Shown here piece by piece: positions 13,651 to 63,701 of a stretch of 64,000 nucleotides of DNA. The stretch covers positions 806,001-870,000 of the forward strand of contig JABVCE010000003.1 in assembly GCA_014905635.1 (NCBI GenBank), given 5' to 3'. The notes under the pieces were generated by a model that was given only the letters and a program-made list of their open reading frames with translations, searched no databases and was not told the DNA's origin. This DNA comes from Scenedesmus sp. PABB004 (taxonomy: Eukaryota). The number at the start of each line of letters is the position of its first letter. The first letter of the stretch is position 1. Both the position numbers and the translations under genes were made by a program.

Positions 13651-16600
13651 CCGGCGCGCAGGGCGACGCGGGCGCCGGCGAGCGGAGCTTCACGTCGGCG
13701 TCGTGGCACGGCGGCGCGGCGAGCAGCGCGAGCAGCCACAGCGACCTCCAGCAGCTGGGCAGGTTCGGCAGCAGCGCGGGCGACCTCCTCGCGGCGCACG
13801 GCAGGCCGCCGGCGGGCGCGTCGCCCGCCAAGACCGCCGGCGGCGGCGGTGGCGAGGGCGGGTCGTTCACCGGCGCCAACGGCCACCGCGACGCGGGCGC
13901 GCCGCGCGGAGGCACGGGCGCGCCGCCGGGCGGCGCGCCTGCCGCCGTGGCCGACCGCAGCCACAGCCACAGCCACAGCGCGCCGCTGCCGGCGCCGGGG
14001 CAGGTCGCGGTGGTCCAGCCGAGCGGCGGCAGCTGGGAGATGGGCCCCGTGCCCGTGGGGCTCACCACCCAGATCATGGCGTCGCACTCTAGCTTTGGCT
14101 CCGGCCCCGGCCTCGGCGACCGCGTGACCGCGACGGGCAGCCACGTCTCGCGCCACATGAGCGAGGACCGCTCGAGCAGCCGGCTGTGGAGCGCGGTCAT
14201 GCGGCGGTTCAGCGCGCTCGGCCGCACCGGCGCGAGCTTTGGCAAGGTCGGCGGCCTCTCGGCGGACCAGCAGCCCGTGCAGGTGCTGCGCCTCGCGATC
14301 CGCGTGGGCATCGCCACGGGCGCGCTGCCGTACGCCTGCGACGTCAGCAACTGCACCGTCAAGGACCGCGCCAAGGGTGCGCCGCGCCGCGCCGCGCCCC
14401 GCCGAGCGGCGGCGGCGCCCGCAGCGAGCGCGCAGCCGGCACGCCCCGCCGCCCTCCCGCCCGCGCCGTGCGACGCCCGTGCGCCGCCGCCGCCGCCGCG
14501 GCCGCCGCAGAGCTGGTGAGCGACGTCGCGGCGGGCGGGCAGGTGCTGGTCGATGAGGGCACGTTCCTGCTCATCAAGGACAGCCTCAGCGTGCTCGGCA
14601 CGGTCAACGAGGCAGGCTACGACGACAAGATGCTGCAGCGCCTCATGCACGCCCAGGTCGTGGACATGCTGCAGCGCCGCATCGGCTGCAACGTGTGCAC
14701 AAAGTGAGGGCCGCGGACGCGGCGCCGTGCGTTGAGCGCCGCAGCGGCGGCGCCCGCGCGCGCGCCAAGCCGGGGCCGGGCGCGGGCGCCGGTGCGGCGC
14801 GCTGCTGCTCACCGCCGCCCGCCGCCGCCCGCCGCCGCCCGCCAGGGAGCACCGCGAGGCGTCGTTCACGAGCGAGGCGGCCGACCGGGGCGTGCAGGAC
14901 TACGACAACGACGCCGTCGTGGTGCACATGGGCTGCTTTGAGGTGCCCGTGGACGCCGAGGACGGCAGCCGCAACAACAGCGACGCGCACGCGGTCGACC
15001 TCGCCGCCGCCGTGGCCGGCAGGGCGCCGGCCCAGGACGCGGGCGCGCGCGACCAGGCGGCCAAGGCGGCCAAGGCGGCGGCCAAGGCGGCCAAGGCAGC
15101 CAAGGCCGCGGCGGCGGCGGCGGCCGCGGCCGCGGCGCCCGCGGCCGCGGCGGCGGACGCCGCCGGCGCGCCCGCGCGGCGGACGGTGCGGCAGCAGCTG
15201 CAGCTGTACTCTGTCGCCGCGCCGGGCATGCGGCGGCCGGCAGACAACACCGTCGACCTTCAGCGCTACCTGAGCTGGGCGGAGCCGGTCAGCATGAAGC
15301 CGGGCTGGCAGCAGATGCAAAAGGGCTTCTTCGACGCGCCAGGTGCGCGCGGCGCGGCGCGGCACGGCACGCTCGCCGACTGCGAAAGCTCGCGCCCGCG
15401 CGCGCGCGCGTGCCGACGCGCGCCCGCCGCCGCGCCCGCCGCCTGGCGCGCAGGCGCGCGCCAGGTCGACCTGTGCGCGTCGCTGCCGGGCACGGCCGCG
15501 CCGAGCCACGCGCCGCTGCCGGACGTGACGATCGTGTTTGCCTGCGTCGCGGGCGCGAGCAGCTTTACGTTCAAGCGCAGCCGCAGCGAGACGCACTTCC
15601 TGAACAAGGTCATCCGCCGCTGCCTGCTGCAGCAGCTCGCCGCCGTGCAGGACGGCGACGGCTACCTCTGCAGGCGCGGCGCGGCGCGGCTGCCTGCGCC
15701 GCGCGCGCGGGCGCGGCGCGCGGCGGCTGCCCGCCGCGCCGCCGTTCACCGCGATAGCGCCAGGCCTCCTGACGCGGCTCCCGTGCGCCCTGCCCGCCTG
15801 TCCGCCTGTCCGGCTGCCCCACGCGCCTGTGCAGGTGCCAGGAGGCAGACCTGAAGTACATGATCGCCTTTGAGCAGCCCCACCGCGCGGTGCAGTGGTG
15901 CCTGGCCGTGCAGGTGCGGCGCCGCGCCGCGCCGCGCCCTTCGCCGGCCGCTGGCCGCAGGGGAGCCTGCTGCAGCTGTTGCAGCCCGTGCTGTGCTGCA
16001 GCAGTTTGAGCAGGCTCCCCTGCGGCCCGCGCCCGCGCCCGCGCCCGCGGCGCCCGCGTGCCGCGCCCGCGTGCCGCGCCGCCCGCCCACCGCGCCGCCG
16101 CCGCGCCGCGCCGCGCAGGAGGCGCTCATGTACGTGCCCTGGCCCGCGCACGTGCTGGCGCACCCGGGCTTTGAGGAGGTCCCCGACCCCGCCACGGGGC
16201 TGCCGCTCTTCCGCGGCCCCCGCCTGCGCATGGGCCTCGCCGAGGGCCAGCCCACGAGCGTGCTGCCCGACCACACCGGGCGTGCCAACTACTTTGGCGG
16301 CAGCGTCAACCGCGCGGCGCGCTACATGGACGCCGCTGCGCACGGGGGGCAGGTGGTGACGGACGTGGAGCTGCTGCGCAAGCTCTGCCGCGTGTGGGCG
16401 GCGCAGGACCGCGAGGACAGCGTGTGCCCGGAGGGTGACAGCAACGACAGCAACGTGCAGCACGCGCCCGCGCTGTCGCGCGGCGGCAGCTCCTCCGGCC
16501 GGCACGGCTCACTGCCGCTGCCGCCGAGCGAGCACTCGCAGGCGTCGCTCGGCGGCAGCCACCACGGCGCGGCGGCGGCGGTCAGCCCGCCGCAGTCGCC

Positions 16601-40626: not shown

Positions 40627-43474
40627 TCACCTGCCCCAGAGCACCATGTCCAGGAACACGAAGAACTGCGCCGCGATGACGAGGAGAACGAGGGCGATCA
40701 GCGCCCAGCCGCGCGCGCTGAGCCGCGACGCGCCGGCCTTGGCCTTGGCGTGGCGCGCCGCCGCGCGGTGCGCCGCCTCGCCCTCGTCGCCGCTGCCGTC
40801 GTCGCTGTCGTCCGCCTCGTCCTCGCTCTGCCCCCCGCGCTCCCACGCCGCCGCGTCGCCGGAGGGCGTGTCGTCGTCCGGCCAGCCCGCCACCGCGCCC
40901 CGCGCAAAGATGGCGCCCGCGCGCAGCAGCAGCTCGCCGTGCAGCGCCATCAGCAGCTCCGTCTCGAGCGCGCTCGCCTCCGCCTGGACCTCGCGCTCCG
41001 GGCCGGCCAGGTTGAACGCGTACTTGCCGCCGCCGGGCCGGAGCAGCTGGAACAGGCTGGCCGCGGGCCGCGCCTTGCCGTCGGCGCCGGCGCGGTGCGT
41101 GGGGTCGCGCGCGGGCGAGGCCCACGTCGGCGGCGCCGCGACGCGGCTCGAGCGCAGGAAGGGCTCCCCGCCCGCCCCGAGCTCAAACGTGTAGTCCTTG
41201 GCCACGCGGGCACAGCCGGGCGCGAGGTAGGGGTTCGGGCAGAACTCGAGCTCGACTGCAAGGCGCGGCGCGGCGCGGCGCGGCGCGGCGAGTGGGCGCG
41301 CGCGCTGCGCCGCGCGTGGGCGGCCAGGGGCCACGTGCGCCGCGCCGCGGGCCGCACGCCGTCCGCGCGCCGCGCACGTTTGCCGTGCGCCTCTCTGCTG
41401 CTGCCGGCGCCGGCCGTGATGCTCAGCCGCACGTCGGCGAGGCTCGCCAGCACCGCGGCGTCCCGGCTGCTGATCGCGAGCGCCGCCGCGTCGGCCGAGC
41501 GCAGCACGCGCAGCCAGAAGCGAGGCACGCTGGGCTCGCTCGCGCCCGGCGGCAGCAGCAGCGCCCGGCGCTTGACCGCGAGCTCCTGGCGCAGCTTGTC
41601 GCCCGCCGCGGTCGCCTCCGCGCGCTGCCGCTGCCGCTGCGCCGCGAGCTCGTCCAGCTGGGCCTGCGGGCACGCGGGCGCCGCGGGCGCTCGGCACGGG
41701 CCTCGGCCGGCCCCTCCCTGCGTCGCGCGCGCCGCCCCGCCCGCGCGCCTGGTTGTGCCGCAGCGCCGCCAGCACCGCCTGCACGGGCGGCGGGAGGTCC
41801 TCGTGGCTGCCGCCGCCAGACACGACGGCAAAGTCGTCGTCGTCCTCGTCGCTCAGGCTCTGGGCGGCGGCGGCGCGCCGCGCGGCCGGCGGTCAGGGCC
41901 AGCGGCGGGCCGCAGGCGCCCCGCGCGCGCGTGCACGGGCGCCGGCATCGCCCCCGCGCTGCGCCACAGTGGGGCGGGGCGGGGCGGCGTCGCGCGCCTG
42001 GCGGCCCGCCCACCTGCAGGGGGCCAGCCATGAAGAGCGCCGCTGCGCGCGGCAGGACCTCGCCCAGCAGCGCCGCCATCACGGCCGCGTCGGCCCGCGC
42101 CTTGGCCGACTTGGCGGCGCCGCCCTGCGAGCGCGCGGGGCACCACGCGCGTTGGAACGGCGGCGGCACCACGGACACGTCGGCAAGCAGCAGCCGGCCG
42201 CTGTTGGCACGCCCGGAGGCGCCGCGGGGCACGCGCACCGCGTCGCCCTCCCCGTCCGAGGCGTCGCTGTCGCCGCCGACCAGCGCCGCGGGGTCGTGCA
42301 GCGCGCCGCGGCGGGCCGACGTGGTGGTGTCTGGCGCAAAGAACCGGAAAAAGGAGGGGCAGGCCTTCAACCGCACGCCGGCGCCCGCCCCGTCGTCGGC
42401 GCCGCCCTTGGCCTTGCCGCCCTTCTTGCCCTTCTTGCCGCCGCCGCCCTTCCGCACCTCCTGCGCCGCGCGGGCGCGTGAGCGCGCAAGCTTGCGGGTG
42501 CTGCCCGCCGACGGCCCCTGCGCGCGGCCCAGCCCGTGCGTGGCGCCGCGCGCCCCGCGCGGCCGCGCGCCTTGACCGTCAGCTTGTGCTTGGTGTCCTT
42601 CCAGTCAATGGCGGTTGTGACCTCCAGCGCCCCCGCGTCGCCGAGGCAGCGCCGCAGCGTGGAGTTGGTGAAAAACGGGTTGGCCGCAAACGCCATCTCC
42701 AGCGTGGGCGGGCCGCCGCCTGCAGCGGCGTGGAAGCGCGGCGGTGAGCTGGCGCGCGGGCCGCCTGCAGCCCGGCCCGCCGCCTGCGGCTGCTCGGCCG
42801 CCTGCCGCCCTGCCAAAGCAGGCAGGCGCCGCCGCGTCGCGCCTGGCGGGTGCACGGCCTTGATGCTGGTGCAGTGGCTCAGCGCCAGCCTGTCCCGGCT
42901 GCTGATCTCCTCGGCCAGCCCGTCCTGCAGCGCAGCGGCGGGCAGCCGTGAGCTCGCGCGCGCGCGTGCGGCGCGCAGGCAGCGGCGGCGCGCCCTGTGC
43001 CGCCGGCGCGCCGCACGTGGTTGCAGAGTGCGTTGAGCCAGAACTGCGGCACGCCCCGGGGGCTCTTGCCCCCGCCGGCGGCCGCGGCGGCGCCGCCCTG
43101 CGGCTCAAAGCCCGCCAGCTCCTCGCTCGTCGGCAGCGCCTTGCCCGACACCAGCTCCTGCCTGCAGCGCCACGCGGCGGCTTGGTCCAGGGCTCGGGCT
43201 GCGGCGCGGCGCGGCGCGGCGCGGCGCGGCGCGCCAGCAGCGGCGACCGCGCGGCGCGGGCGGGCGCACCGGCGCTTGAACAGCGAGTCGAGCGCCTTTG
43301 CGTGGCCCGCCCCCGCCACAGCAAACGAGTCCTCGACCGCCTGCAACTGCGCGGCCACCGCCGCCTGCGCGGCCGCGGAGCAGCGGCGGTTGGCGGCCGC
43401 TGCTGCACCCGCCGCCCGCGCGGCGCCGCGCCGCACACCTCCAGCTCCTGCATGGCCTGCAGCGCGGCCTCCAT
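40627..43474 (-). CDS. Tandem NAP/SET (nucleosome assembly protein) domain protein with C-terminal transmembrane tail, multi-exon
   Basis: Domain 1: PQFWLNALCNH|DGLAEEISSRDRLALSH, FAANPFFTNSTL, IDWKDTKHKLTVK, CPSFFRFF, EVLPRAAALF. Domain 2: VPRFWLRVLRS..ISSRDAAVLASLADVR, LEFCPNPYL, SLFQLL, ELLLRAGAIF. Then an acidic tail and WALIALVLLVIAAQFFVFLDMVLWGR*. Confidence 0.8.
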
Positions 43475-43764
43475 GGCGGCGCGCTCGCGCAGCGGCGGGG
43501 CGGGTGGCTGCAGCAGTTCTGGCCGCGGACGACCGCCGCGCGGGAGCGGCGCGCAAGGCCGGTGCGCGGCGGCAGCGTGCGGGTGCGGCTTGCGGGTGCT
43601 GGTGTCGGTCCGGAGACTCTGGTCGTGCGGACAGACGGGGCCCGCGGCGGCGCGGTATAGACCGCGGGAGCGCGGCGGCGCAGCGCGGCGGTCTGGCGGC
43701 GGGCGCGGCGGCGGCGCCCGGGAGGCTGCTCCGCCGGCCCCCACACACCGGGAACTGCACCACC

Positions 43765-43923
43765 ATGGCGTCCGAGGAGTGCACAAAGCTCAGTTTGCCC
43801 TTAATCACAGAGGCGTGCAGCATTTTCTTCCGCGATGTGTACGCTGACGAATTCCTTGCCCCAATCTACAAGGGCGTCAACATGGTGGTCCTCAGGCGGC
43901 ACGTCAGCTATTTCCTCTTCCAG
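43765..43923 (+). pseudogene. Duplicated exon 1 of the truncated hemoglobin gene (orphan or alternative first exon)
   Basis: Reads the same as 44795-44953 (MASEECTKLSLPLITEACSIFFRDVYADEFLAPIYKGVNMVVLRRHVSYFLFQ) with an intact CAG|GT donor. Confidence 0.7.
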
Positions 43924-44036
43924 GTCCGCCCGCGCTCGCCGCGCATGCTGGGGCGGCGCTGCCGGCGCCACGCGCCGCTCCGGGGCGGCTCGCGCCCGCC
44001 CGGGGGCGCGACCCGCCGCGCCCGCCCGGGCGCGCA

Positions 44037-44504
44037 CGTGGTTGCAGAGAGCGTTCTGGTTCAAGAGCCAGAACTGCGGCGCGCCCCGAGGGCTCTTGCC
44101 CCCGCCGGCGGCCGCGGCGGCGCTGCCTGGCGGCTCAAAGCCCGCCAGCTCCTCGCTCGTCGGCAGCGCCTTGCCCGACACCAGCTCCTGCCTGTGGCGC
44201 CACGCGGCGGCGGCGTCCAGGGCTCGGGCTGCGGCGCGGCGCGGCGCGCCGTGCCAGCCAGCAGCGGCGACCGCGCGGCGCGGGCGGGCGCAGCGGCGCT
44301 TGAACAGCGAGTCGAGCGCCTTTGCGTGGCCCGCCCCCGCCACAGCAAACGAGTCCTCGACCGCCTGCAACTGCGCGGCCACCGCCGCCCGCGCGGCCGC
44401 GGAGCAGCGGCGGTTGGCGGCGGGCGCCGCTGCTGCACCCGCCGCCCGCGCGGCGCCGCGCCGCACACCTCCAGCTCCTGCATGGCCTGCAGCGCGGCCT
44501 CCAT
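44037..44504 (-). pseudogene. Duplicated exons 1-3 of the tandem-NAP gene (orphan or alternative 5' exons)
   Basis: MEAALQAMQELE|AAVAAQLQAVEDSF..LFKRR|QELVSGKALP..PQFWLLNQNALCNH with frame and exon-3 donor intact. Confidence 0.7.
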
Positions 44505-44794
44505 GGCGGCGCGCTCGCGCAGCGGCGGGGCGGGTGGCTGCAGCAGTTCTGGCCGCGGACGACCGCCGCGTGGGAGCGGCGCGCAAGGCCGGTGCGCGGC
44601 GGCGGCGTGCGGGTGCGGCTTGCGGGTGCTGGTGTCGGTCCGGAGACTCTGGTCGTGCGGACAGACGGGGCCCGCGGCGGCGCGGTATAGACCGCGGGAG
44701 CGCGGCGGCGCAGCGCGGCGGTCTGGCGGCGGGCGCGGCGGCGGCGCCCGGGAGGCTGCTCCGCCGGCCCCCACACACCGGGAACTGCACCACC

Positions 44795-46013
44795 ATGGCG
44801 TCCGAGGAGTGCACAAAGCTCAGTTTGCCCTTAATCACAGAGGCGTGCAGCATTTTCTTCCGCGATGTGTACGCTGACGAATTCCTTGCCCCAATCTACA
44901 AGGGCGTCAACATGGTGGTCCTCAGGCGGCACGTCAGCTATTTCCTCTTCCAGGTCCGCCCGCGCTCGCCGCGCATGCTGGGGCGGCGCTGCCGGCGCCA
45001 CGCGCCGCTCCGGGGCGGCTCGCGCCCGCCCGGGGGCGCGGCCTGGGCCGGGGGTCTCGAACCGCCGGCCGCCGGGCGCCCGCGGCCGGCGGCTGGGCGG
45101 GGGGCCGGCGCCACTGCTGCGGGCCTCACCCGACCTGCCGGTGACGCCCGCCCGCAGCTGTCCCAGTTCGAGTGCCCCATGACCCCGCGGCAGATCGAGT
45201 ACCTGCGCACCGCGCACCTGCCGGTGGTGCTGCAGCGCGGCGCGACAATGGCGCACGTCGACCGCATCGTGCAACACCTCGCGGCGGCGATGCTCTCCTG
45301 CGGCGCGCAGGTGCGCGCGCCGCCGCGGGGCGCCGCGTGGGCGCCGCCCCGCAGTCGCGCCGCCCCGTGCGCATGCGCGCGCGCGCGCAAAACTGCGCGG
45401 GCCTCACCCCGCCGCCGCCGCCGCTGCTGCCGCTGCTGCTGCTGCTGCCGCTGCGCAGGAGTCGCAGATCAACATGGTGGCCGCCAAGCTGAAGCCCTTT
45501 GTGATCATGTTCCCCGAGACCCCGCACCCCGCGCCCAAGGGCATGCGGGCGAGCATGGACGGGTCGAGCGCGTCGGACGTCGAGGCCGTCCTGCGAGAGC
45601 TGACGTGCCCCGCGGGGACGTGCGCCGACCCCGCGTCGTGCCCCGCGGCGATGGCGTGCCCCGTGGCGGCGGCGGCGCGCCCCGCAGCGGCGGCGGCGTG
45701 CCCCGCGGCGGCGGCGGCGCGCCCCGCAGCGGCGGCGGCGTGCCACGCCGGGGTGTGCGACAGCGCGGCGGATGCGGAGGGCTCGTGCCCCGTCGCGGCC
45801 GGCCCTGGCTCGTCGCCCGCCAAGCCAAAGGCCGGCTGCGGCGCGCAGCGCTGCGCCTGCGACGCGGACTGCCGGTGCGGCTGCGCGGCGAGCCCGTGCG
45901 CCGGCGCGTGCCCATGCGCCAGCGCGGCGCAGCAGGCCGTGGGCGGCGGCGGGGGCGAGCCGGCGGCCGCGAAGCCGTCGTGGCTGCAGCGCGTGTTCGG
46001 GTGCGTGCGCTGA
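44795..46013 (+). CDS. Group I-like truncated (2/2) hemoglobin fused to a Cys/Pro-rich, metallothionein-like C-terminal tail (exons 44795-44953, 45158-45310, 45459-46013; 288 aa)
   Basis: FFRDVYADEFLAPIYKGVNMVVLRRHVSYFL resembles the trHb FYxxVLAD..LAPFFxGVDMxxL pattern; LRTAHLPVV carries the proximal His; HVDRIVQHLAAAMLSCGA resembles HFDAVxxHLxxxL..GV. Three phase-0 exons with canonical GT-AG; the tail has 18 Cys. Confidence 0.8.
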
Positions 46014-55174: not shown

Positions 55175-57768
55175 AGGGCAAGGTGGTCACGGCGGCGCGC
55201 GAGTCCAAGGGCAGCTTTCTGAGCAAGCTGGGGCTCGGCGGCTCGCACAAGAAGATCTTCAAGGTGCGGCCCGCCCGCCCGCACAGCTGCCTGCCGCCGC
55301 CAGCTGTGCGCCCACCACGCGCACGCGCGCGCGCGCCCGCCGACCCGCCGCGCCGCCCGCGGCCGCGCCGCGCCGGCGGGGCAGGAGGCGCGCGACGCGC
55401 TCGCGGCGGCGCGCGCCGCGCTCGCGGCCGAGGCGACGGGCGACCCGCTCACCGACGACGACGAGCCGGGGCCCGACCCCTCGGTCGGGCGCGGCGGCGG
55501 CGGCGGCGGCGGGCGGCGCCGCTGCGGCGGCCAGCCCCGGCGAGCTGCACCTGAGCTGGGAGCGCGGCGCCAAGGTGTCGGCGGTCGGGCTCGTGCCTGG
55601 TGAGGCCAGCGCGACGCTGTGGGTGGGGCTGAGCCGCAAGGTCGAGTTTTACGTCGGCTGCAGCGCGTCCGCGCGGCACGAGTACCCACTGCCTGACAAG
55701 GTGCGCGATGCAGCACGCCAGGCAGCGCGCCAGGCGGATCGCGACGGCGGCGGCTGGCGCACAGCGGCTGGCGCGCCGACGCACGCCCGCGGCGCGCGCG
55801 CCCGCGCGGCGGCGCCGCAGGCGCAGGCCATCACCGCCGTGGTCTGCGACGCCGCGCTGGGGCACGTGTGGACGGGGCACGCCGACGGCACGGTGCTGCT
55901 GCACGCGCGCGGGCAGTGGGGCGTCGGCGCGTGCCCCAGCGCCGTGGGCCTGCCGGTGCGGTCGCTCGCGGTCGACGCGCGGCACTACGCCTGGGCCGGC
56001 GACGACGCGGGCATCATACGCGTGCTGAGCCTCGACCCCGCCACGGGGCGTCTCGCGGCGCGCATGCAGCTGACGCCGCCGCAGGCCACCGGGCTGGTGC
56101 AGCTCGCGGCGCGGCGCGGGCCCGCCGAGGCCGCCGCCGCGGCGGCCGCCGCGGCGCCCAGCCCCGCGAGCGCGCCGCCGCCGCCGGGCGTCGCGGGGCG
56201 GGGCTTCCCGGTGGCGGCCATGCTCGGCCGCGCGGGCGTCGTGGTCAGCGCGGGCGGCAAGTGGGCGACCGCGCTCACGGTGTGGCACGCCCAGAGCTAC
56301 AGCGAGCTCGAGGTCGCCGCGTGCGACAGCTTTGGCGCGACGCAGGCGCTCGCGCTGCTGCCTTGGGCGGACGACGACGGCGGGGAGGAGGGCGACGGCG
56401 GCGCGGCGGCGGGCGTGCCCGCCGCCGGCATTGCGGTCGGCTGGGCCGCCGGCGCGCCGCGCGCGACCGTGCCGCAGCGCGTCCTCGCCGCGAGCGCGGC
56501 CGGCGCCGGCGGCGGCGCCGCGCGCGGGCCCGGCGGGGCGGGCTCCTTTGGCGCCAAGGCCGCCCCGGACGGCGCGGAGTATCGGGGCTGGCGGCTGCTG
56601 TCGGGCCACGAGCGCGGCCAGGTTCTGGTGTGGCAGGTGCGGCCGGCGGGCCGCGCCGGCGGGCCGCGCCCGCTGCACCTGGTCGCCGCCATCGGCGACG
56701 CGCGGCCGCACTGGTGAGCGCGCGCGGACAGGGGCGGCGCGTGCGGCGCGCCGCGCCGTGCGCCGGGTGCCGCGCCGGATGGTGCTGGGGCTCACCCGCC
56801 GCCGCGCCCGCCCGCGCAGCGCTGTGCGCGGCATGGCCGTCTTGCCCGACTGGTCCATGCTCGTCCTGGCGCACGCCTCGGGCGCGCTCTCGCTGCTGCC
56901 CGCGCCCTCCGCGAGCAACGGCGCCGCGCCGGCGCCGGGCGCCGCGCCCAGCGCGTTTGCGGCGGTCGGCGTGCCCGCGCTGCCGGGCGCGCCGGCGCTC
57001 GGCCACGCCAGCGGCGGCGGGCTGCACGTCTGGCGGCCGCGTGTGGCGAGCATCAAGGCACACAAGTCGGGCATCGTTGCCACCACCGCGCTGGTGCGTG
57101 CTGCAGGCCGCCGCGCCGCCCCGCCGCGCGCCCGCGTGCCGCCCGCGTGCCGCCCGCGGGCCCTCGCCCGAGCCCCCGCCGCCGCGCCGTGCCGCGCCGC
57201 GCCGCGCCCCGCCGGGGCAGGGCGAGCTGCTGGTGACGGCGAGCGCTGCGACGGTCAAGTCCTGGACGGCAGAGCGGCTCAAGCTGGAGGCGCAGGGCGA
57301 CGGCGTGATGTTTGCCCGCGCCAGCTCGGCCGCGGGCGGCAGCGCGCCGGCGTCGGGCGGCGGCGACGCACCGAGCAGCGCCGGCAGCGAGCTGCCCGAC
57401 CGCGCCGCCGCGGCCGCGGCCGCGCTCGCGGCGGCCGAGGCGGAGCTCGCGGCCGAGGCGGCGGCCGAGGCGGCGGCCGCCGCGAGCAGCCAGGACGGCT
57501 CCGGCGCGCCGCCGCCGGCGGCGAGCAGCAGCGACGCGACGTCGGGGTCGTCCGCGCCGCCGGCGCGGCTGCCTGCGCGGTGCAGCGCCAGCAACCCGAT
57601 GTCGCGCGCCGGCGCGGCGCAGCGCGGCCTGCGCGTCGACGCCAAGGGCACCGTGCTGCTCAGCGGCCCGTCCAGCGGCAGCGCGCCGCCGAGCAGCGCG
57701 TTTGGCGCCTTCCCCGGCGGCGGCGGCCTGGCGGCCATGCCCACCACAATGGGCTTTGGCGCCCAGGT

Positions 57769-57817
<49 letters not shown>

Positions 57818-60800
57818 GCGCGCGCGTGCCCGCCGGCCGAGGCTTCACGTCGCACCGCGCCGCGCGCGCGCGCAGGCGCACCCGCTGCCGCCGGGCGTCT
57901 CGATCGGCCTGTCGGGCGCGCCGAGCGGCGGCGGCGGCGGCGGCGCGCTCGAGCCGTCGGGCAGCGTCGCAGAGGCGATCAAACTCTGCCACGTCATCTG
58001 CAACAGCGAGCTGGTGCTTAAGGACGTCATCGGCAGCGGCGCAGAGGGCAAGGTGGGGTCTTAGGCCTCAACCCTCTAAACCCTAAACCCTGCGCCGCGC
58101 GGGGCCGGCGCGCAGGCGCGCAGGCGCGCGGGCGGGCGGCCGACGCGCGCGCGCCGCGCCGTGCCGCGCAGGTGTACCGCGGGACGTGGACCAACATCGA
58201 CATCGCCGCCAAGGAGTACCTGGCCGTTGACGACGACGCGCCGCCCGGCGGCGCCGGCGCCGAGCCGGGCGCGCCGCCGAGCGACGCGGGCATGCAGCAC
58301 GCGCGGGTGCGGCGCGGCGCGGCGTGGCGCGGCGCCGCCGCCGCCCTCCCCGCCGCCACCGCCCCCTCTCGCCGCCCCGCTCGCCGCCCCACCGCGCCCG
58401 TTCTGTCCCTGCCCGCGCGCCGCGCTGCGCCCGCGCGCCGCGCTGCGCCCGCGCGCCGCGCGCCAGGACGCGCTGCGCAAGGAGGTCGCGCTGCTGACGA
58501 CGCTGAACCACCCCAACCTCGTGCGCTTCTGCGGCGTCTGCCTCGACCCGCCGCTCGTGGTCATGGAGTTTTACCGGTGCGCACGCACTAGGGTTTAGGG
58601 GCCCTAGCACAGGGACCCTGGGCAGGGCCGCGCGCCGGGCCCGGCGGGGCGGGGCCGCCAGCGGGCGGCGCGGGGCGCGGCCCGGGCGCTCAGCGCACAC
58701 CGTATGCCAGCGTGTGCCACATGCCAGCAGCCCTCGCCTTGGTGCACGTTCTTGAGGTACCTGTCCCTCTGTGAAGTCGTCGGCGCAATGCCTACGACTA
58801 CATGGAGGGACAAAAAACTCGAGAAGGGCATCAAGCTGAGGGCTGCTGGCATGTCGTGCACCCGCGAGGGCGGGCAATCGTCCCGCAGCACGCGGCCACG
58901 GGCGCGCCCGCCCGCCCCTCGCGCTGGGCCCCGCCCCGCGCCGCCGACGCGGCGGCGGCGCCGGCCGGCGCCGCCCGCCCCTCCCTGCGCCGCGCCGCGC
59001 AGGCACGGCAACGTGTTCAGCATGCTGGAGAAGGCCCGCCGGCAGTGGTGCAACGTCGCGGGCGCCAAGGCCGGCGCCAAGGGCGGCTCGACCAAGGCGC
59101 GCGCGCGCGGGGGCACGCGGGCACGCGGGCGCTCGGGCTCTCGGGCTCTATTCAAACGGCCCTTTTCGAACGCCGCAGTACATGGCCTACTTCAACTGGG
59201 ACCGGCGGCTCGAGATGCTGCACGACGTCGCGTCCGGCATGATGTACCTGCACAAGCGCCACTACGTCCACGGCGACCTGCGCAGCCCAAACCTCTTCGT
59301 CGGCTCCGACGGACGCGTGAGACACACCGCGCGCGCCGCGCGGCCGCCGGCTTGACTCACACGCACGCGCGCGGCCGCGCGGCGCGCGGCGCGCGGCCTC
59401 GCACGCGCGCTCACGTGTGCCGACGCGGCGGCTGCGCGTTCTGCAGGTGAAGATCGGCGACTTTGGCTTCACCAAGCGCCTCAGCGGCAGCAAGGCGAGC
59501 ATGCAGGTCAAGCGCATCACGCACCCGCGCTGGGTCGCGCCGGAGCTGATGACGCACAACCGCCTCAGCACCGCCAGCGACGTCTACAGGCGCGCTGCCC
59601 GGCACCGCGCACCGCGGCGGCCGCGCTGGGCCGGGTCGCGAACCGCCGCCGCGCCCACGCGTGAGGCTGCGCCGCGCGCCGGCTCAGCACCGCGCCGCCC
59701 CGCTGCGCGCCGCCCGCGGCCGTCTCCGCCGCCCGCCTGTCTGCCTGCTCCCTTGCAGCTACGGCATCATCATGTTTGAGATGCTCACCTGGGCGCTCCC
59801 CTTCAACGAGCTCAGCAAGGAGCAGGTGCGCGGCGCGGCGAGCGGCGGCGGCGGCGGCGGCGGGAGACAGGGGCCGGACGGGAGTCCAGCGCGCACGCGC
59901 CCGGGCGCGCGCCGCGCACCCTGAGCGCGGCCGCGGCGCGCGCGCGGCGCGCAGGTCGTGCTGCGCGTGATGTCTGGCGGCCGCCCCGACATGCCGGGCG
60001 ACGAGGAGCTGCCGCCCGGCACCAGCAGCAGCACATGTGCGCGCCGCGCGCCGCCACCCGCGCCCGCGCCCGCGCCTGCCGCGCCGCGCCGCCGCGCCCG
60101 CCGCGCCGCCAGCTCGCCGCCAGCCCCGCCGCGGCGGCTGTTGAACCCCGCCCGCCCGCCACCGCCCGCCACCGCCCGCCACCGCCCGCTCCGCACAGGC
60201 CTGGGCAACTACAAGAAGCTCATGGCCGAGTGCTGGTCGCAGGACCCGGAGGCGCGCCCCGGCTTTGACAAGATCGCGGCGCGGCTCAAGGCCATGATCC
60301 GCTGGCGCATGGTCATCGCGCGGAACAAGATACTCTCCTCCGTCGCGCGCCGCCTGCGCGACGCGCCGCGCGGCGGCGCCGGCGGCGCCGGCGGCGGCGC
60401 GGCCGCCGCGGGCGCGGCCGCCGCGGCCGCCGCCGCGCGGCGCCCGCCCTCGGCGACCGCCGCGGTCGCGGCGGGCGCGGCGGCGGCGGCGGCCGCCGCC
60501 GCGGGCGGCCGCGGGCAGGGCACCGGGCGTGGCGGCGGTCGCGCCGGCGCCCGCCGCCGGAGCCGCGAGCGCGGCGGCCGCGTCGGCGGCCGCTGCGGCC
60601 GCTGCGGCGGCTGCGGCGGCCGCGGCGGCGGCCGGCGGGGAGCCCGAGCACGAGCCCCTGCCCGTGCCGGACCACCCCCTGGTCGCTGTGGACGGCAGCG
60701 ATGTGGAGCTGCCGGTGCTGCCGGGCGCTGCGCTGCCGGCCGGCGTCGTGCCGGCGGCGCCTGCGGACGCAGTCAGCAGCCCCCCCAGCGGGGGTGCGCT

Positions 60801-63701
60801 GGGCAGCGCAGACGTGGCGGCGCAGGCCGGCAGCGGGCTGGGCGGCGCGCCGGCCGCGGCCGCCGCGGGCGCGGTGAGCGGCGGCGGCCAGCCCTCGACC
60901 CTCAGTGGCGCGCCGTCCAGCCGGTCTGTCACGTCGCCCCTGGGACCGGCGGGGCTGCACCTGCCGCCCCCTTCGCAGGAGGCCGAGCAGCGCGCCGCAG
61001 ACGGCGGCCCGGCGCTGTCGGCGCCCGCGCTGGCGGCAGTGGGCGGCGCCAAGCAGCCCGGCGGCCGCGACGTGGAGGACTGGCTGGCGCACCAACAGGG
61101 TCCGGCAGCCGCGCCCCAGGCGCAGCCCGGCGGCGCGCAGCAGGCGCCCGCGTCGGGTGCGGCGCCGGAGCAGCAGCAGCCGCAGCAGCAACAGCAGCAG
61201 CCGCCGCAGCAGCAGCAGGCGCCGGCGCCGCAGGCCGACGTGTTCACAGCCCAGGACTCGCCGTTCTGCGGCTTTGCCGCCCCGGCCATCGGCTCGGCCA
61301 GCGCGGGCGGCTCGCTGGGCGGCGCGCTCGGCGGCGGCAGCCTGCCGGAGGACGAGAGCCTGCCGCTCGCCGACGGCGGCCCCGCGCTGGGCGCGGCAGT
61401 GACGCTGATCTATGCCGAGGGCCTGACCCCCATGGACGCGGCGCTGCGCTCGAGCGCGACGACGCGGGCGGGCACGCTCAGCGGCGCCACGCTGCCCAGC
61501 CTCGAGGCCGGCCTGGCCAGCGGCGGCGCGCCGCGCCGGGACCCCTTTGACGCGCCGTTCCAGGAGGACAACTTCTGCAGCGCGGGGCCGTTTGGCGCGG
61601 CCGTGCGCGGCGGCGGCGGCGGCGACAACCTGGCGAGCGTCGGGCCGTTTGCCCGCGGCGGCTTCGGCGACAACCTGGCGAGCGTCAGGCCGTTTGCCCG
61701 CGGCGGTGCCGGCGGCGACAACTTGGCAAGCGTCGGGCCTTTCGCCCGCGGCGGCGGCGACAACCTGGCGAGCGTCGGGCTGTTTGCCCGCGGCGGTGCC
61801 GGCGGCGACAACTTGGCAAGCGTCGGGCCTTTCGCCCGCGGCGGCGGCGACAACCTGGCAAGCGTCGGGCCGTTTGCCCGCGGCGGTGCCGGCGGCGACA
61901 ACCTGGCGAGCGTCGGGCCGTTTGCACGCGGCGGTGCCGGCGGCGACAACTTGGCAAGCGTCGGGCCTTTCGCCCGCGGCGGCGGCGACAACCTGGCGAG
62001 CGTCGGGCCGTTTGCACGCGGCGGCGGCGGCGGCGACAACCTGGCAAGCGTCGGGCCGTTTGCCCGCGGTGGCGGCGGCGGCGGCGGCGACGACAACCTG
62101 GCGAGCGTCGGGCCATTTGCCGCAGCAGGCAGGGCCCCGCCCACCAGCATGGGCGCGTCGCCGTTCGCCACCTCGCCGCGCTCGCACCCCATCGCGGTTG
62201 CCGGCCCCGGCGGCCAGCCGGGTCTGGGCGGCGGCTACGCGGGCGGCGGCTACCTAGGTGGGGCGTACCCTGGCGGGGCGCACCCTGGTGGCGCGTTCCC
62301 GGGCGTCATGATGCCGCAGCAGGCGTACCCGCCATACGGCTACGGCCCTGGCCCCTGGGGCGGCGCCGCCATGGCGGCGCAGGGGCACATGGCGCCGCCG
62401 GCGATGCCGGGCCAGCCCGGCGGCCCCGGCGGGGCCGCGCCCGGGGCGCCTGGGCCGCAGGCCGCGCCCGGCGGCGCCCGCCAACCCTCGCCCGCGCCCC
62501 GCGGCCCGCAGCCGCGCAGCCCCGTGCTCGGCGCCGGCGGCGGCGGCGGCGAGCACCCGCCGCCCGGCGGGCTGCCGGGGACGCCGCAGGGCAGCCTCAC
62601 GCCCGGCGGCGCGGGGCCGGCGTTCAACCGCCCCCTGGATGATGCCTGCCTGAACAGGCGCCTGGGCGCGGCAGACGAGGGCGAGGACCTGATGGAGAAA
62701 GCTCAGCGCGACCTCGCGGCCTGGCAGCGCACCGGCGCGGCGGGCAGCCGCTCGGGGCGGCAGCGCGCCGCGTCGGGCTCGGCCGACACGGTGCGTGGCA
62801 GCCAGGACGAGCTCGCGCGCGTGTCGGGCGACGGCAGCGGCGCCGGCGGCGGCTTTGCGGGCGCGGGCTGGGCGCCGCCGGGGCGAGCCGGCAGCAGCTT
62901 TGACGCGCCGCCCGACGCCGCGACGCTCGCGGCGCTGGGCATGCCGGGCGGCGTCGTGCCGCCGGCCGCGTTTCGCCAGATTGCCCCGGGGGAGCGCGTC
63001 ACCGTGGTCAACCGCCCCGGCGGCCCCGGCGCTGCGCCGCCGGGCATGGACGGCCTGGGCGGCGGCGGCGGCGGCGCGATGGCGCCCTTGGGCCAGGCGC
63101 CGTGCTGGCCGCCGCCCCAGCTGGGCGCGGCGCAGCAGCAGCCCGGCGGCGGCTACGCGGACCCGGGCCAGCTGCAGCAGCAGCTGCAGCAGCAGATGCA
63201 GCAGATGCAGCAGCAGATGCAGCAGCTGCAGATGCAGCAGCAGGGGCAGCCGCCGCTGTCGCCCACGGCGCAACGCACTCAAAGCGGCTTCGGCCCGAGC
63301 GGCCCCCCAGCGGCGGCGCGCAGGCCGGCTGGGCGCACGCGTGCCTGGGCAGCGGCGAGGCGCCTGCGGTGCCGACGGACGGGCAGGGCACGGCGGCGCA
63401 GCAGCAGATGATGTGGGCGGCGATGCAGCAGCAGATGCAGCAGCAGATGCAGCAGCAGATGCAGCAGCAGATGTTCATGGCGCAGCAGCAGCAGGCGATG
63501 CAGCTCAGCCCGGGGCCGCAGCAGCAGATGATGATGCAGCAGATGCAGCAGCAGGTGCTGCAGCAGATGCAGCAGCAAATGCAGCAGCAGATGCAGCAGC
63601 TGCAGCTGCAGCAGCAGGGGCAGGCGCAGGCGCAGCAGCAGGTGCAGCAGCAGCAGGGCTACTCGCAGCAGCAGCCGCAGCAGTGGCCGCCCAACGCCTG
63701 A
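54725..63701 (+). CDS. Large TKL/Raf-like Ser/Thr kinase: N-terminal helical bundle, WD40-like propeller, kinase (~58000-60300), long disordered tail with tandem repeat and poly-Q/M end; apparent 1-nt indels near 55511, 60503 and 63305
   Basis: IGSGAEGK|VYRG, IAAKEY, LRKEVALLTTLNHPNLVRFCGVC, HGDLRSPNLFV, KIGDFGF, PRWVAPE, SDVYS|YG, ECWSQDPEARPGF; propeller blades VWTGHADGTV, AWAGDDAGIIRV, LLSGHERGQVLVW. Stop TGA 63699-63701. Confidence 0.88.
58070..58091 (-). repeat. Short interstitial plant-type telomeric repeat (CCCTAAA) in a kinase intron
   Basis: aaccctctaaaccctaaaccct. Confidence 0.6.
58589..58600 (+). repeat. Short interstitial plant-type telomeric repeat (TTTAGGG) in a kinase intron
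   Basis: tagggtttaggg. Confidence 0.55.
58714..58861 (+). ncRNA. Long unbranched stem-loop in kinase intron 58577-59002; candidate intronic pre-miRNA
   Basis: Hand-paired arms: 58719-58735/58838-58854 (17 bp perfect), 58738-58745/58828-58835, 58749-58756/58818-58825, 58762-58773/58801-58812, 58775-58780/58794-58799, 58782-58784/58790-58792, with a small terminal loop. Several G:U pairs on the + strand; GC much lower than the flanking intron. Confidence 0.65.
61609..62124 (+). repeat. Coding minisatellite: 11 copies (mostly 42-48 bp) encoding G(3-7)-DNLASVGPFAR
   Basis: ggcgacaacctggcgagcgtcgggccgtttgcccgcggc repeated with mostly synonymous variation and in-frame length changes. Confidence 0.95.

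Follow-up and report, generated by a model that had tools for sequence, protein, structure and literature searches.

The closest described counterparts of the locus reported here come from Chlamydomonas. Nine of 18 high-confidence microRNAs (miRNAs) of this alga were reported to derive from introns, to depend on DCL3, and not to be tied to splice sites in the way that mirtrons are (Valli et al. 2016, PMC4817775). In mirtrons, the hairpin ends are the splice sites themselves (Ruby et al. 2007, cited in PMC4817775). An intronic location is also given for cre-miR1157, which lies within Cre12.g537671 of Chlamydomonas reinhardtii, while cre-miR909 was reclassified as a hairpin-derived siRNA locus (PMC4817775). 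The same authors describe DCL3 as reducing the levels of mRNAs that bear hairpins. Read-based criteria for calling Chlamydomonas miRNAs were presented by Voshall et al. (2017, PMC5511227), according to whom many of these miRNAs are young, not conserved between species, and processed imprecisely out of rather long hairpins. The name miR918 likewise occurs in two papers on Chlamydomonas. For the order Sphaeropleales, a supplementary AGO tree places AGO homologues in Chromochloris zofingiensis and Raphidocelis subcapitata (PMC10226591), hence RNAi proteins exist in the order. Compact and very GC-rich Sphaeropleales genomes have also been described, with a GC content of 72.4% (PMC7354681). A search of the literature outside subscription journals returned no small-RNA sequencing or Dicer paper on Scenedesmus or other Sphaeropleales.

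Here, we describe a long hairpin in an intron of a kinase gene from a Sphaeropleales-like chlorophycean alga. The window, i.e., the whole stretch of DNA that was analysed, spans 64 kb and has a GC content of 78.6%. The anatomy of the locus is firm: the sense strand of a conserved gene carries, centrally in a GC-saturated intron, an inverted repeat unique in the 64 kb and of exon-like GC content. Its features, all on the + strand, are as follows.

58467..58576: upstream kinase exon, DALRKEVALL...VVMEFY followed by the CG of an Arg codon
58577..59002: host intron, GT-AG, 426 nt, in the kinase domain, located by the tblastn junction and by the Pfam PK_Tyr_Ser-Thr profile, which is split after position 84
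58577..58706: 5' intron flank, 130 nt, 82% GC, G-rich and of low complexity, resembling other parts of the window in composition only
58707..58869: full hairpin with weak outer pairs, from RNAfold and its pair list, 60% GC, with the core inverted repeat at 58714-58861
58719..58735: 5' strand of the perfect 17-bp helix, exact match, with its reverse complement at 58838-58854
58757..58761: 5' side of a symmetric 5x5 internal loop (partner 58813-58817), with two in-register C·A that are G:U on the - strand only
58785..58789: terminal loop of 5 bases on a closing GGC/GCC stem of 3 bp
58838..58854: 3' strand of the perfect 17-bp helix, inside the candidate 21-mer 58837-58857
58870..59002: 3' intron flank, 133 nt, 90% GC, C-rich and of low complexity, pairing with the 5' flank when the whole intron is folded
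59003..59054, 3' end approximate: downstream kinase exon, the G of the Arg codon followed by HGNVFSMLEKARRQWCN, with a donor GT at 59055

The locus resembles the intron-derived miRNA precursors of Chlamydomonas in being a sense-strand, intron-internal stem-loop of a protein-coding gene that is long, nearly perfect and unbranched. It differs from them in its Sphaeropleales-like host, in the lack of sequence similarity, in the ~79% GC of its surroundings, and in being known here from sequence alone. The likeness extends to the hairpin-siRNA and young long-hairpin loci of Chlamydomonas, with which it shares a stem of ~70 bp, room for several overlapping duplexes, lineage specificity and the lack of conservation. 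An intronic origin is common to mirtrons and the hairpin, whose ends lie away from the splice sites; the 130 nt and 133 nt in between rule out a mirtron.

The host gene is a conserved large TKL-type kinase that runs from ~54740 to past 63000 on the + strand. The frame ending at 58576 encodes positions 44-84 of the PK_Tyr_Ser-Thr profile, and the exon from 59179 encodes positions 99-142. In a protein search with this exon, the best relatives over the full length were a hypothetical protein from Scenedesmus sp. NREL 46B-D3 (P0003, 1,838 aa), a Monoraphidium neglectum protein, and three sequences labelled as transcriptome ORFs (P0005, P0006 and P0016). These matches place the host among chlorophycean algae close to the Sphaeropleales. 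When P0003 and the three ORFs were aligned to the window by tblastn, the motif VVME(F/Y)Y(R/K) ended at 58574-58577 and HGN(V/L) began at 59004. The residue numbers at this junction are adjacent in three of the four orthologues, with one residue unaligned in P0006, which also rules out a cassette exon. Since orthologous proteins run across the junction, the intron from 58577 (GT) to 59002 (AG) is well supported, and its placement within the kinase domain, as originally predicted, holds. The claim that this intron is much longer than most others was equally borne out by six neighbouring introns, which measure 119-169 nt. The hairpin lies midway in the intron, and 263 nt would remain without it. 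Given its sense orientation in an orthologue-supported intron, the hairpin strand would be transcribed together with the pre-mRNA.

We scanned metagenome contigs with an alignment built from exon-level relatives and recovered 58 loci, with a single close relative (L001) and one partial relative (L022) among them. The close relative is a contig of 1,014 nt with 53% GC and 89-91% amino-acid identity. It encodes CGVCLDPPLVVMEFYRHGNVFSMLEKARRQWGN uninterrupted and thus has no intron at the site of the hairpin, though another intron follows further on. The hairpin is therefore absent, together with its intron, from at least one relative. No orthologous hairpin in which to look for compensatory changes was found among the 58 metagenome loci.

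The hairpin is exceptionally stable. The minimum free energy (MFE) fold of 58700-58870 by RNAfold places 58707-58869 of the + strand in a single unbranched stem of 66 pairs (40 G:C, 21 A:U and 5 G:U) at -114.3 kcal/mol. Dinucleotide-shuffled versions average -61.4 kcal/mol (z = -12.13), and none of 200 was as stable. This is the outcome of the folding check proposed with the original prediction, whose single unbranched hairpin at 58714-58861 is recovered by the fold with every listed pairing, including the 17-bp stem, the 5x5 loop, AGTCGT/ACGACT and GGC/GCC. The sequence of the 17-bp stem has exactly two matches in the window, one per arm. Further inward, the stem continues with an 8-bp helix with one G:U, an 8-bp helix with one U:G, a 12-bp helix with two wobbles, and helices of 6 bp and 3 bp. 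The - strand folds as well, at -99.1 kcal/mol (z = -10.03, again with 0 of 200 shuffles as stable), leaving the + strand 15 kcal/mol more stable; under DNA parameters, z is -10.3. We also scanned the whole + strand in 170-nt windows with a step of 15 (n = 4,256), with folding energy regressed on GC content. The top six outliers all overlap the hairpin, at -6.1 to -3.2 sd, and the runner-up locus at 15871 reaches only -2.8 sd. As the hairpin stands out after GC correction, it is real and not a by-product of the GC content of the window. Mismatches, wobbles and indels between the arms, which diverge at ~1 position in 6, along with a proper loop, rule out an assembly artefact.

The predicted shape is that of an algal miRNA precursor, and a miRNA interpretation is plausible. 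Under the Axtell-Meyers criteria for miRNAs, mismatches between miRNA and miRNA* are limited to 4-5 positions. Plant and algal miRNA genes are further recognised by strand-specific reads of 20-22 nt in discrete stacks with one or two dominant 5' ends, by a miRNA* with a 2-nt 3' overhang, and by Dicer-like dependence and Argonaute loading. The locus provides a single unbranched hairpin with duplex mismatches in the range expected of a precursor, and its MFEI is 1.11. Allowing at most five mismatched positions, at most three of them asymmetric, per 21-mer, 89 of 136 scanned start positions yield an acceptable duplex. Sixteen of those begin with U, among them the previously proposed candidate, which indeed lies at 58837-58857 and forms a duplex with two unpaired guide bases and one G:U. 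With so many 21-mers passing, structure alone singles out no particular mature RNA. Target prediction, suggested earlier as a further check, gave no enrichment in the window: complementary sites for all hairpin 21-mers with at most four mismatches numbered three, a count reached or exceeded by 14 of 20 shuffled hairpins.

No Rfam miRNA family is homologous to the hairpin by sequence. A search of 57000-61000 (4 kb) against Rfam gave no match at E values up to 1. With 211 bases searched against Rfam 15, the best match was MIR918 (RF04104) at 43.7 bits (E = 8.9e-07), below the family gathering score of 268. The alignment runs end to end with few identical bases, skips 121 of 265 model positions, and is found on the - strand as well (37.3 bits). 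Homology to MIR918 is ruled out on these grounds, and the resemblance is one of shape only, i.e., one long unbranched hairpin.

Base composition sets the hairpin apart from its intron. The prediction of a lower-GC island was confirmed, at 60% GC against 82% and 90% in the flanks. The six neighbouring introns range from 77 to 90% GC, two of their boundaries being off by 1-2 bases with no effect on the composition and length figures. The exons range from 57 to 77%, so that the GC content of the hairpin is exon-like. Other low-GC islands inspected in the window are coding sequence. Where non-coding DNA is driven to 80-90% GC, a tract of 60% must be either very young or constrained, and an arm divergence of about one in six is compatible with youth.

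Changes between the arms offer a view on selection for RNA structure. The five G:U pairs of the + strand fold (58736:58837, 58742:58831, 58753:58821, 58770:58804 and 58771:58803) are all A·C on the other strand. The original prediction had read such sense-strand wobbles as a sign of selection on structure. The wobbles are present, yet the argument from them is weaker than stated. The - strand fold gains two U:G pairs of its own at 58760/58814 and 58761/58813, which correspond to the two in-register C·A of the 5x5 loop. The + strand is thus favoured in five of seven in-register transition differences (one-sided binomial p = 0.23), or in five of five if the 5x5 loop is ignored (p = 0.03). Transcription is associated with mutation that favours C-to-T and A-to-G changes on the coding strand. 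Such mutational asymmetry could produce the same G:U bias without selection, and the sense-strand G:U argument for selection on structure is weak.

We suggest that the hairpin is a young, lineage-restricted inverted repeat that acts as a Dicer substrate and yields hairpin small RNAs, as a proto-miRNA or hairpin-siRNA locus. We hold this reading tentatively, at a probability of roughly 0.4, and a precise, functional miRNA might account for perhaps about a quarter of it. A young, imperfect inverted repeat of ~150-163 nt would have come to lie in an otherwise ordinary GC-rich intron of a Sphaeropleales-like chlorophycean alga. Judging from its sense-strand position, every pre-mRNA would carry the ~66-bp stem. 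If the alga has a Dicer, the stem would most likely be cut into small RNAs of 20-22 nt. The hairpin would then be a small-RNA precursor akin to the DCL3 products of Chlamydomonas introns, and its products might be loaded into Argonaute, act on targets and affect the kinase mRNA. Consistent with a small-RNA precursor are the structure and its stability, the sense-strand intron, the acceptable duplexes, the chlorophycean host, the composition, flanking direct repeats of no more than 4 nt, which give no sign of a target-site duplication (TSD), and the higher stability of the + strand. Arguing against it are a G:U bias that is not significant (five of seven), the lack of conservation given that L001 has no intron at this position, and the lack of target enrichment in the window.

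MITEs and foldback elements, as well as miRNA genes derived from MITEs, are short, non-coding inverted repeats from end to end, with a composition foreign to their surroundings. The hairpin shares both properties. Apart from a tiny loop, the inverted repeat takes up the entire island, a feature that does not discriminate between readings, and near-perfect pairing over ~70 bp characterises MITEs and foldback elements no less than small-RNA precursors. The hairpin might thus be a single copy of such a transposon, inserted into the intron and without an RNA function of its own, and any small RNAs would be generic transposon siRNAs. This is the most credible of the alternatives and a serious rival, if somewhat less likely than the small-RNA reading. 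A composition sharply unlike that of the surrounding intron, which would otherwise be 263 nt long, points towards insertion. So do the generic GC-rich flanks around a complex and unique island, and the divergence of the arms would suit an insertion that is not very old. However, the hairpin differs from MITEs and foldback elements in that no second copy was found in the DNA searched. Within the 64-kb window, blastn-short returned the hairpin itself, the arm-to-arm match, and otherwise matches of at most 12 nt. A 26-nt degenerate arm pattern had 0 exact matches in three collections of metagenome, prokaryote-genome and viral contigs, weak evidence because these may not contain this alga. Flanking direct repeats do not exceed chance either. 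With candidate element ends varied over a 26 x 30 grid, the maximum is 4 nt, and random grids in the same window reach at least 4 nt in 290 of 300 cases and at least 5 nt in 242 of 300. Nothing TSD-like stands out, although the grid test cannot judge TSDs of 2-4 nt.

A neutral, one-off palindrome provides a further explanation, less likely but still a serious rival. Replication template switching or an inverted micro-duplication, for example, could have produced an unprocessed and functionless inverted repeat. It would have been tolerated since a self-looping hairpin keeps the effective intron short. This would fit the single copy in the window, flanking repeats that are not above chance, and a strand bias that is not significant. 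When the entire intron is folded, the hairpin is retained as an independent arm, and base pairing between the G-rich 5' and C-rich 3' flanks draws the splice sites close to each other. The window contains no visible source for a duplication, though: blastn gave no match above 12 nt, and tblastx of the hairpin against the 64 kb found nothing significant and no parent gene for an inverted duplication. A neutral palindrome would also have to be very young to retain its 60% GC amid non-coding DNA at 80-90%, or else be constrained.

Selection for a cis-acting RNA structure that influences the host gene appears very unlikely as an explanation. The stem might tune splicing or, as a Dicer or RNase III site, throttle the kinase mRNA without a small RNA acting in trans. 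Structure on the sense strand, where the hairpin is 15 kcal/mol more stable, would favour such a role, as would the lowering of hairpin-bearing mRNAs by DCL3 reported for Chlamydomonas (PMC4817775), and low GC may mark sequence constraint. Yet the relative L001, which lacks this intron, indicates that the host gene does not need the hairpin, comparative support is lacking among the metagenome loci, and the strand bias is not significant. Similarly improbable is an authentic intronic miRNA that is diced with precision. In such a case, the 60% GC would be kept by selection on the mature sequence, and dicing would compete with splicing and so couple the small RNA to kinase output.

Introner elements are introns created by a repeated element whose ends supply the splice sites, with near-identical copies in other genes; the hairpin is internal to its intron and the intron flanks have only low-complexity, GC-rich matches of 72-88% in the window, which rules out such an origin.

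Origin and function are partly independent, since Dicer can process a MITE or a palindrome as well. Should the hairpin be no more than a transposon copy or neutral palindrome, it would be an ordinary feature, of use mainly as a marker of recent insertion in a repeat-poor, GC-saturated intron. If small RNAs do arise from the young, Dicer-accessible inverted repeat that we favour, they would make it a clean case, at one locus, for testing how young hairpins turn into miRNAs under an extreme GC drive. The production of miRNAs from introns of coding genes, as in Chlamydomonas, would then extend to a second chlorophycean order.

The catalytic-loop motif of the TKL-type kinase gene, encoded in the exon at 59179-59316, reads HGDLRSPN rather than HRD. 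The H, G and D of this motif are invariant in 12/12 aligned sequences of exon-level relatives, which indicates a kinase clade without the arginine of RD kinases. A further intron of the gene (59590-59758) has the junctions TACAG/GCGCGC ... TTGCAG/C, and no frame-keeping GT donor was found for it. The alignment of orthologous proteins to the window (SDVY/SYGIIM), read together with the window sequence, implies that this intron is of the GC-AG type.

The telomere-like motif GGTTTAGGG occurs twice in the whole 64 kb against 0.04 expected, a count reached in 0/100 shuffles. The copies lie in opposite orientations, each close to the 5' splice site of a different intron of the kinase gene:

58081-58089, minus strand, GGTTTAGGG copy
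58592-58600, plus strand, GGTTTAGGG copy

Across the window, non-coding sequence is more GC-rich (~80-90%) than exons (57-77%), and low-GC islands thus mark coding sequence in the places read. Upstream of the kinase gene, a tandem duplication of ~1.03 kb spans 43035-45090, with copies 93-99% identical:

~43035-44060, duplication copy 1
~44065-45090, duplication copy 2

Both copies carry the same low-GC first exon, beginning MASEECTKLSLPLI..., with its ATG at 43765 and 44795, respectively. Hence, a gene start has been duplicated head to tail.

The close relative L001, a metagenome contig (1-1014, 53% GC), was compared with window positions 58467-59825. Three kinase-domain introns of the window, at 58577, ~59317 and 59590, are absent from L001, which has introns at other positions. 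Among related algae, the placement of introns in the kinase gene is thus subject to turnover.
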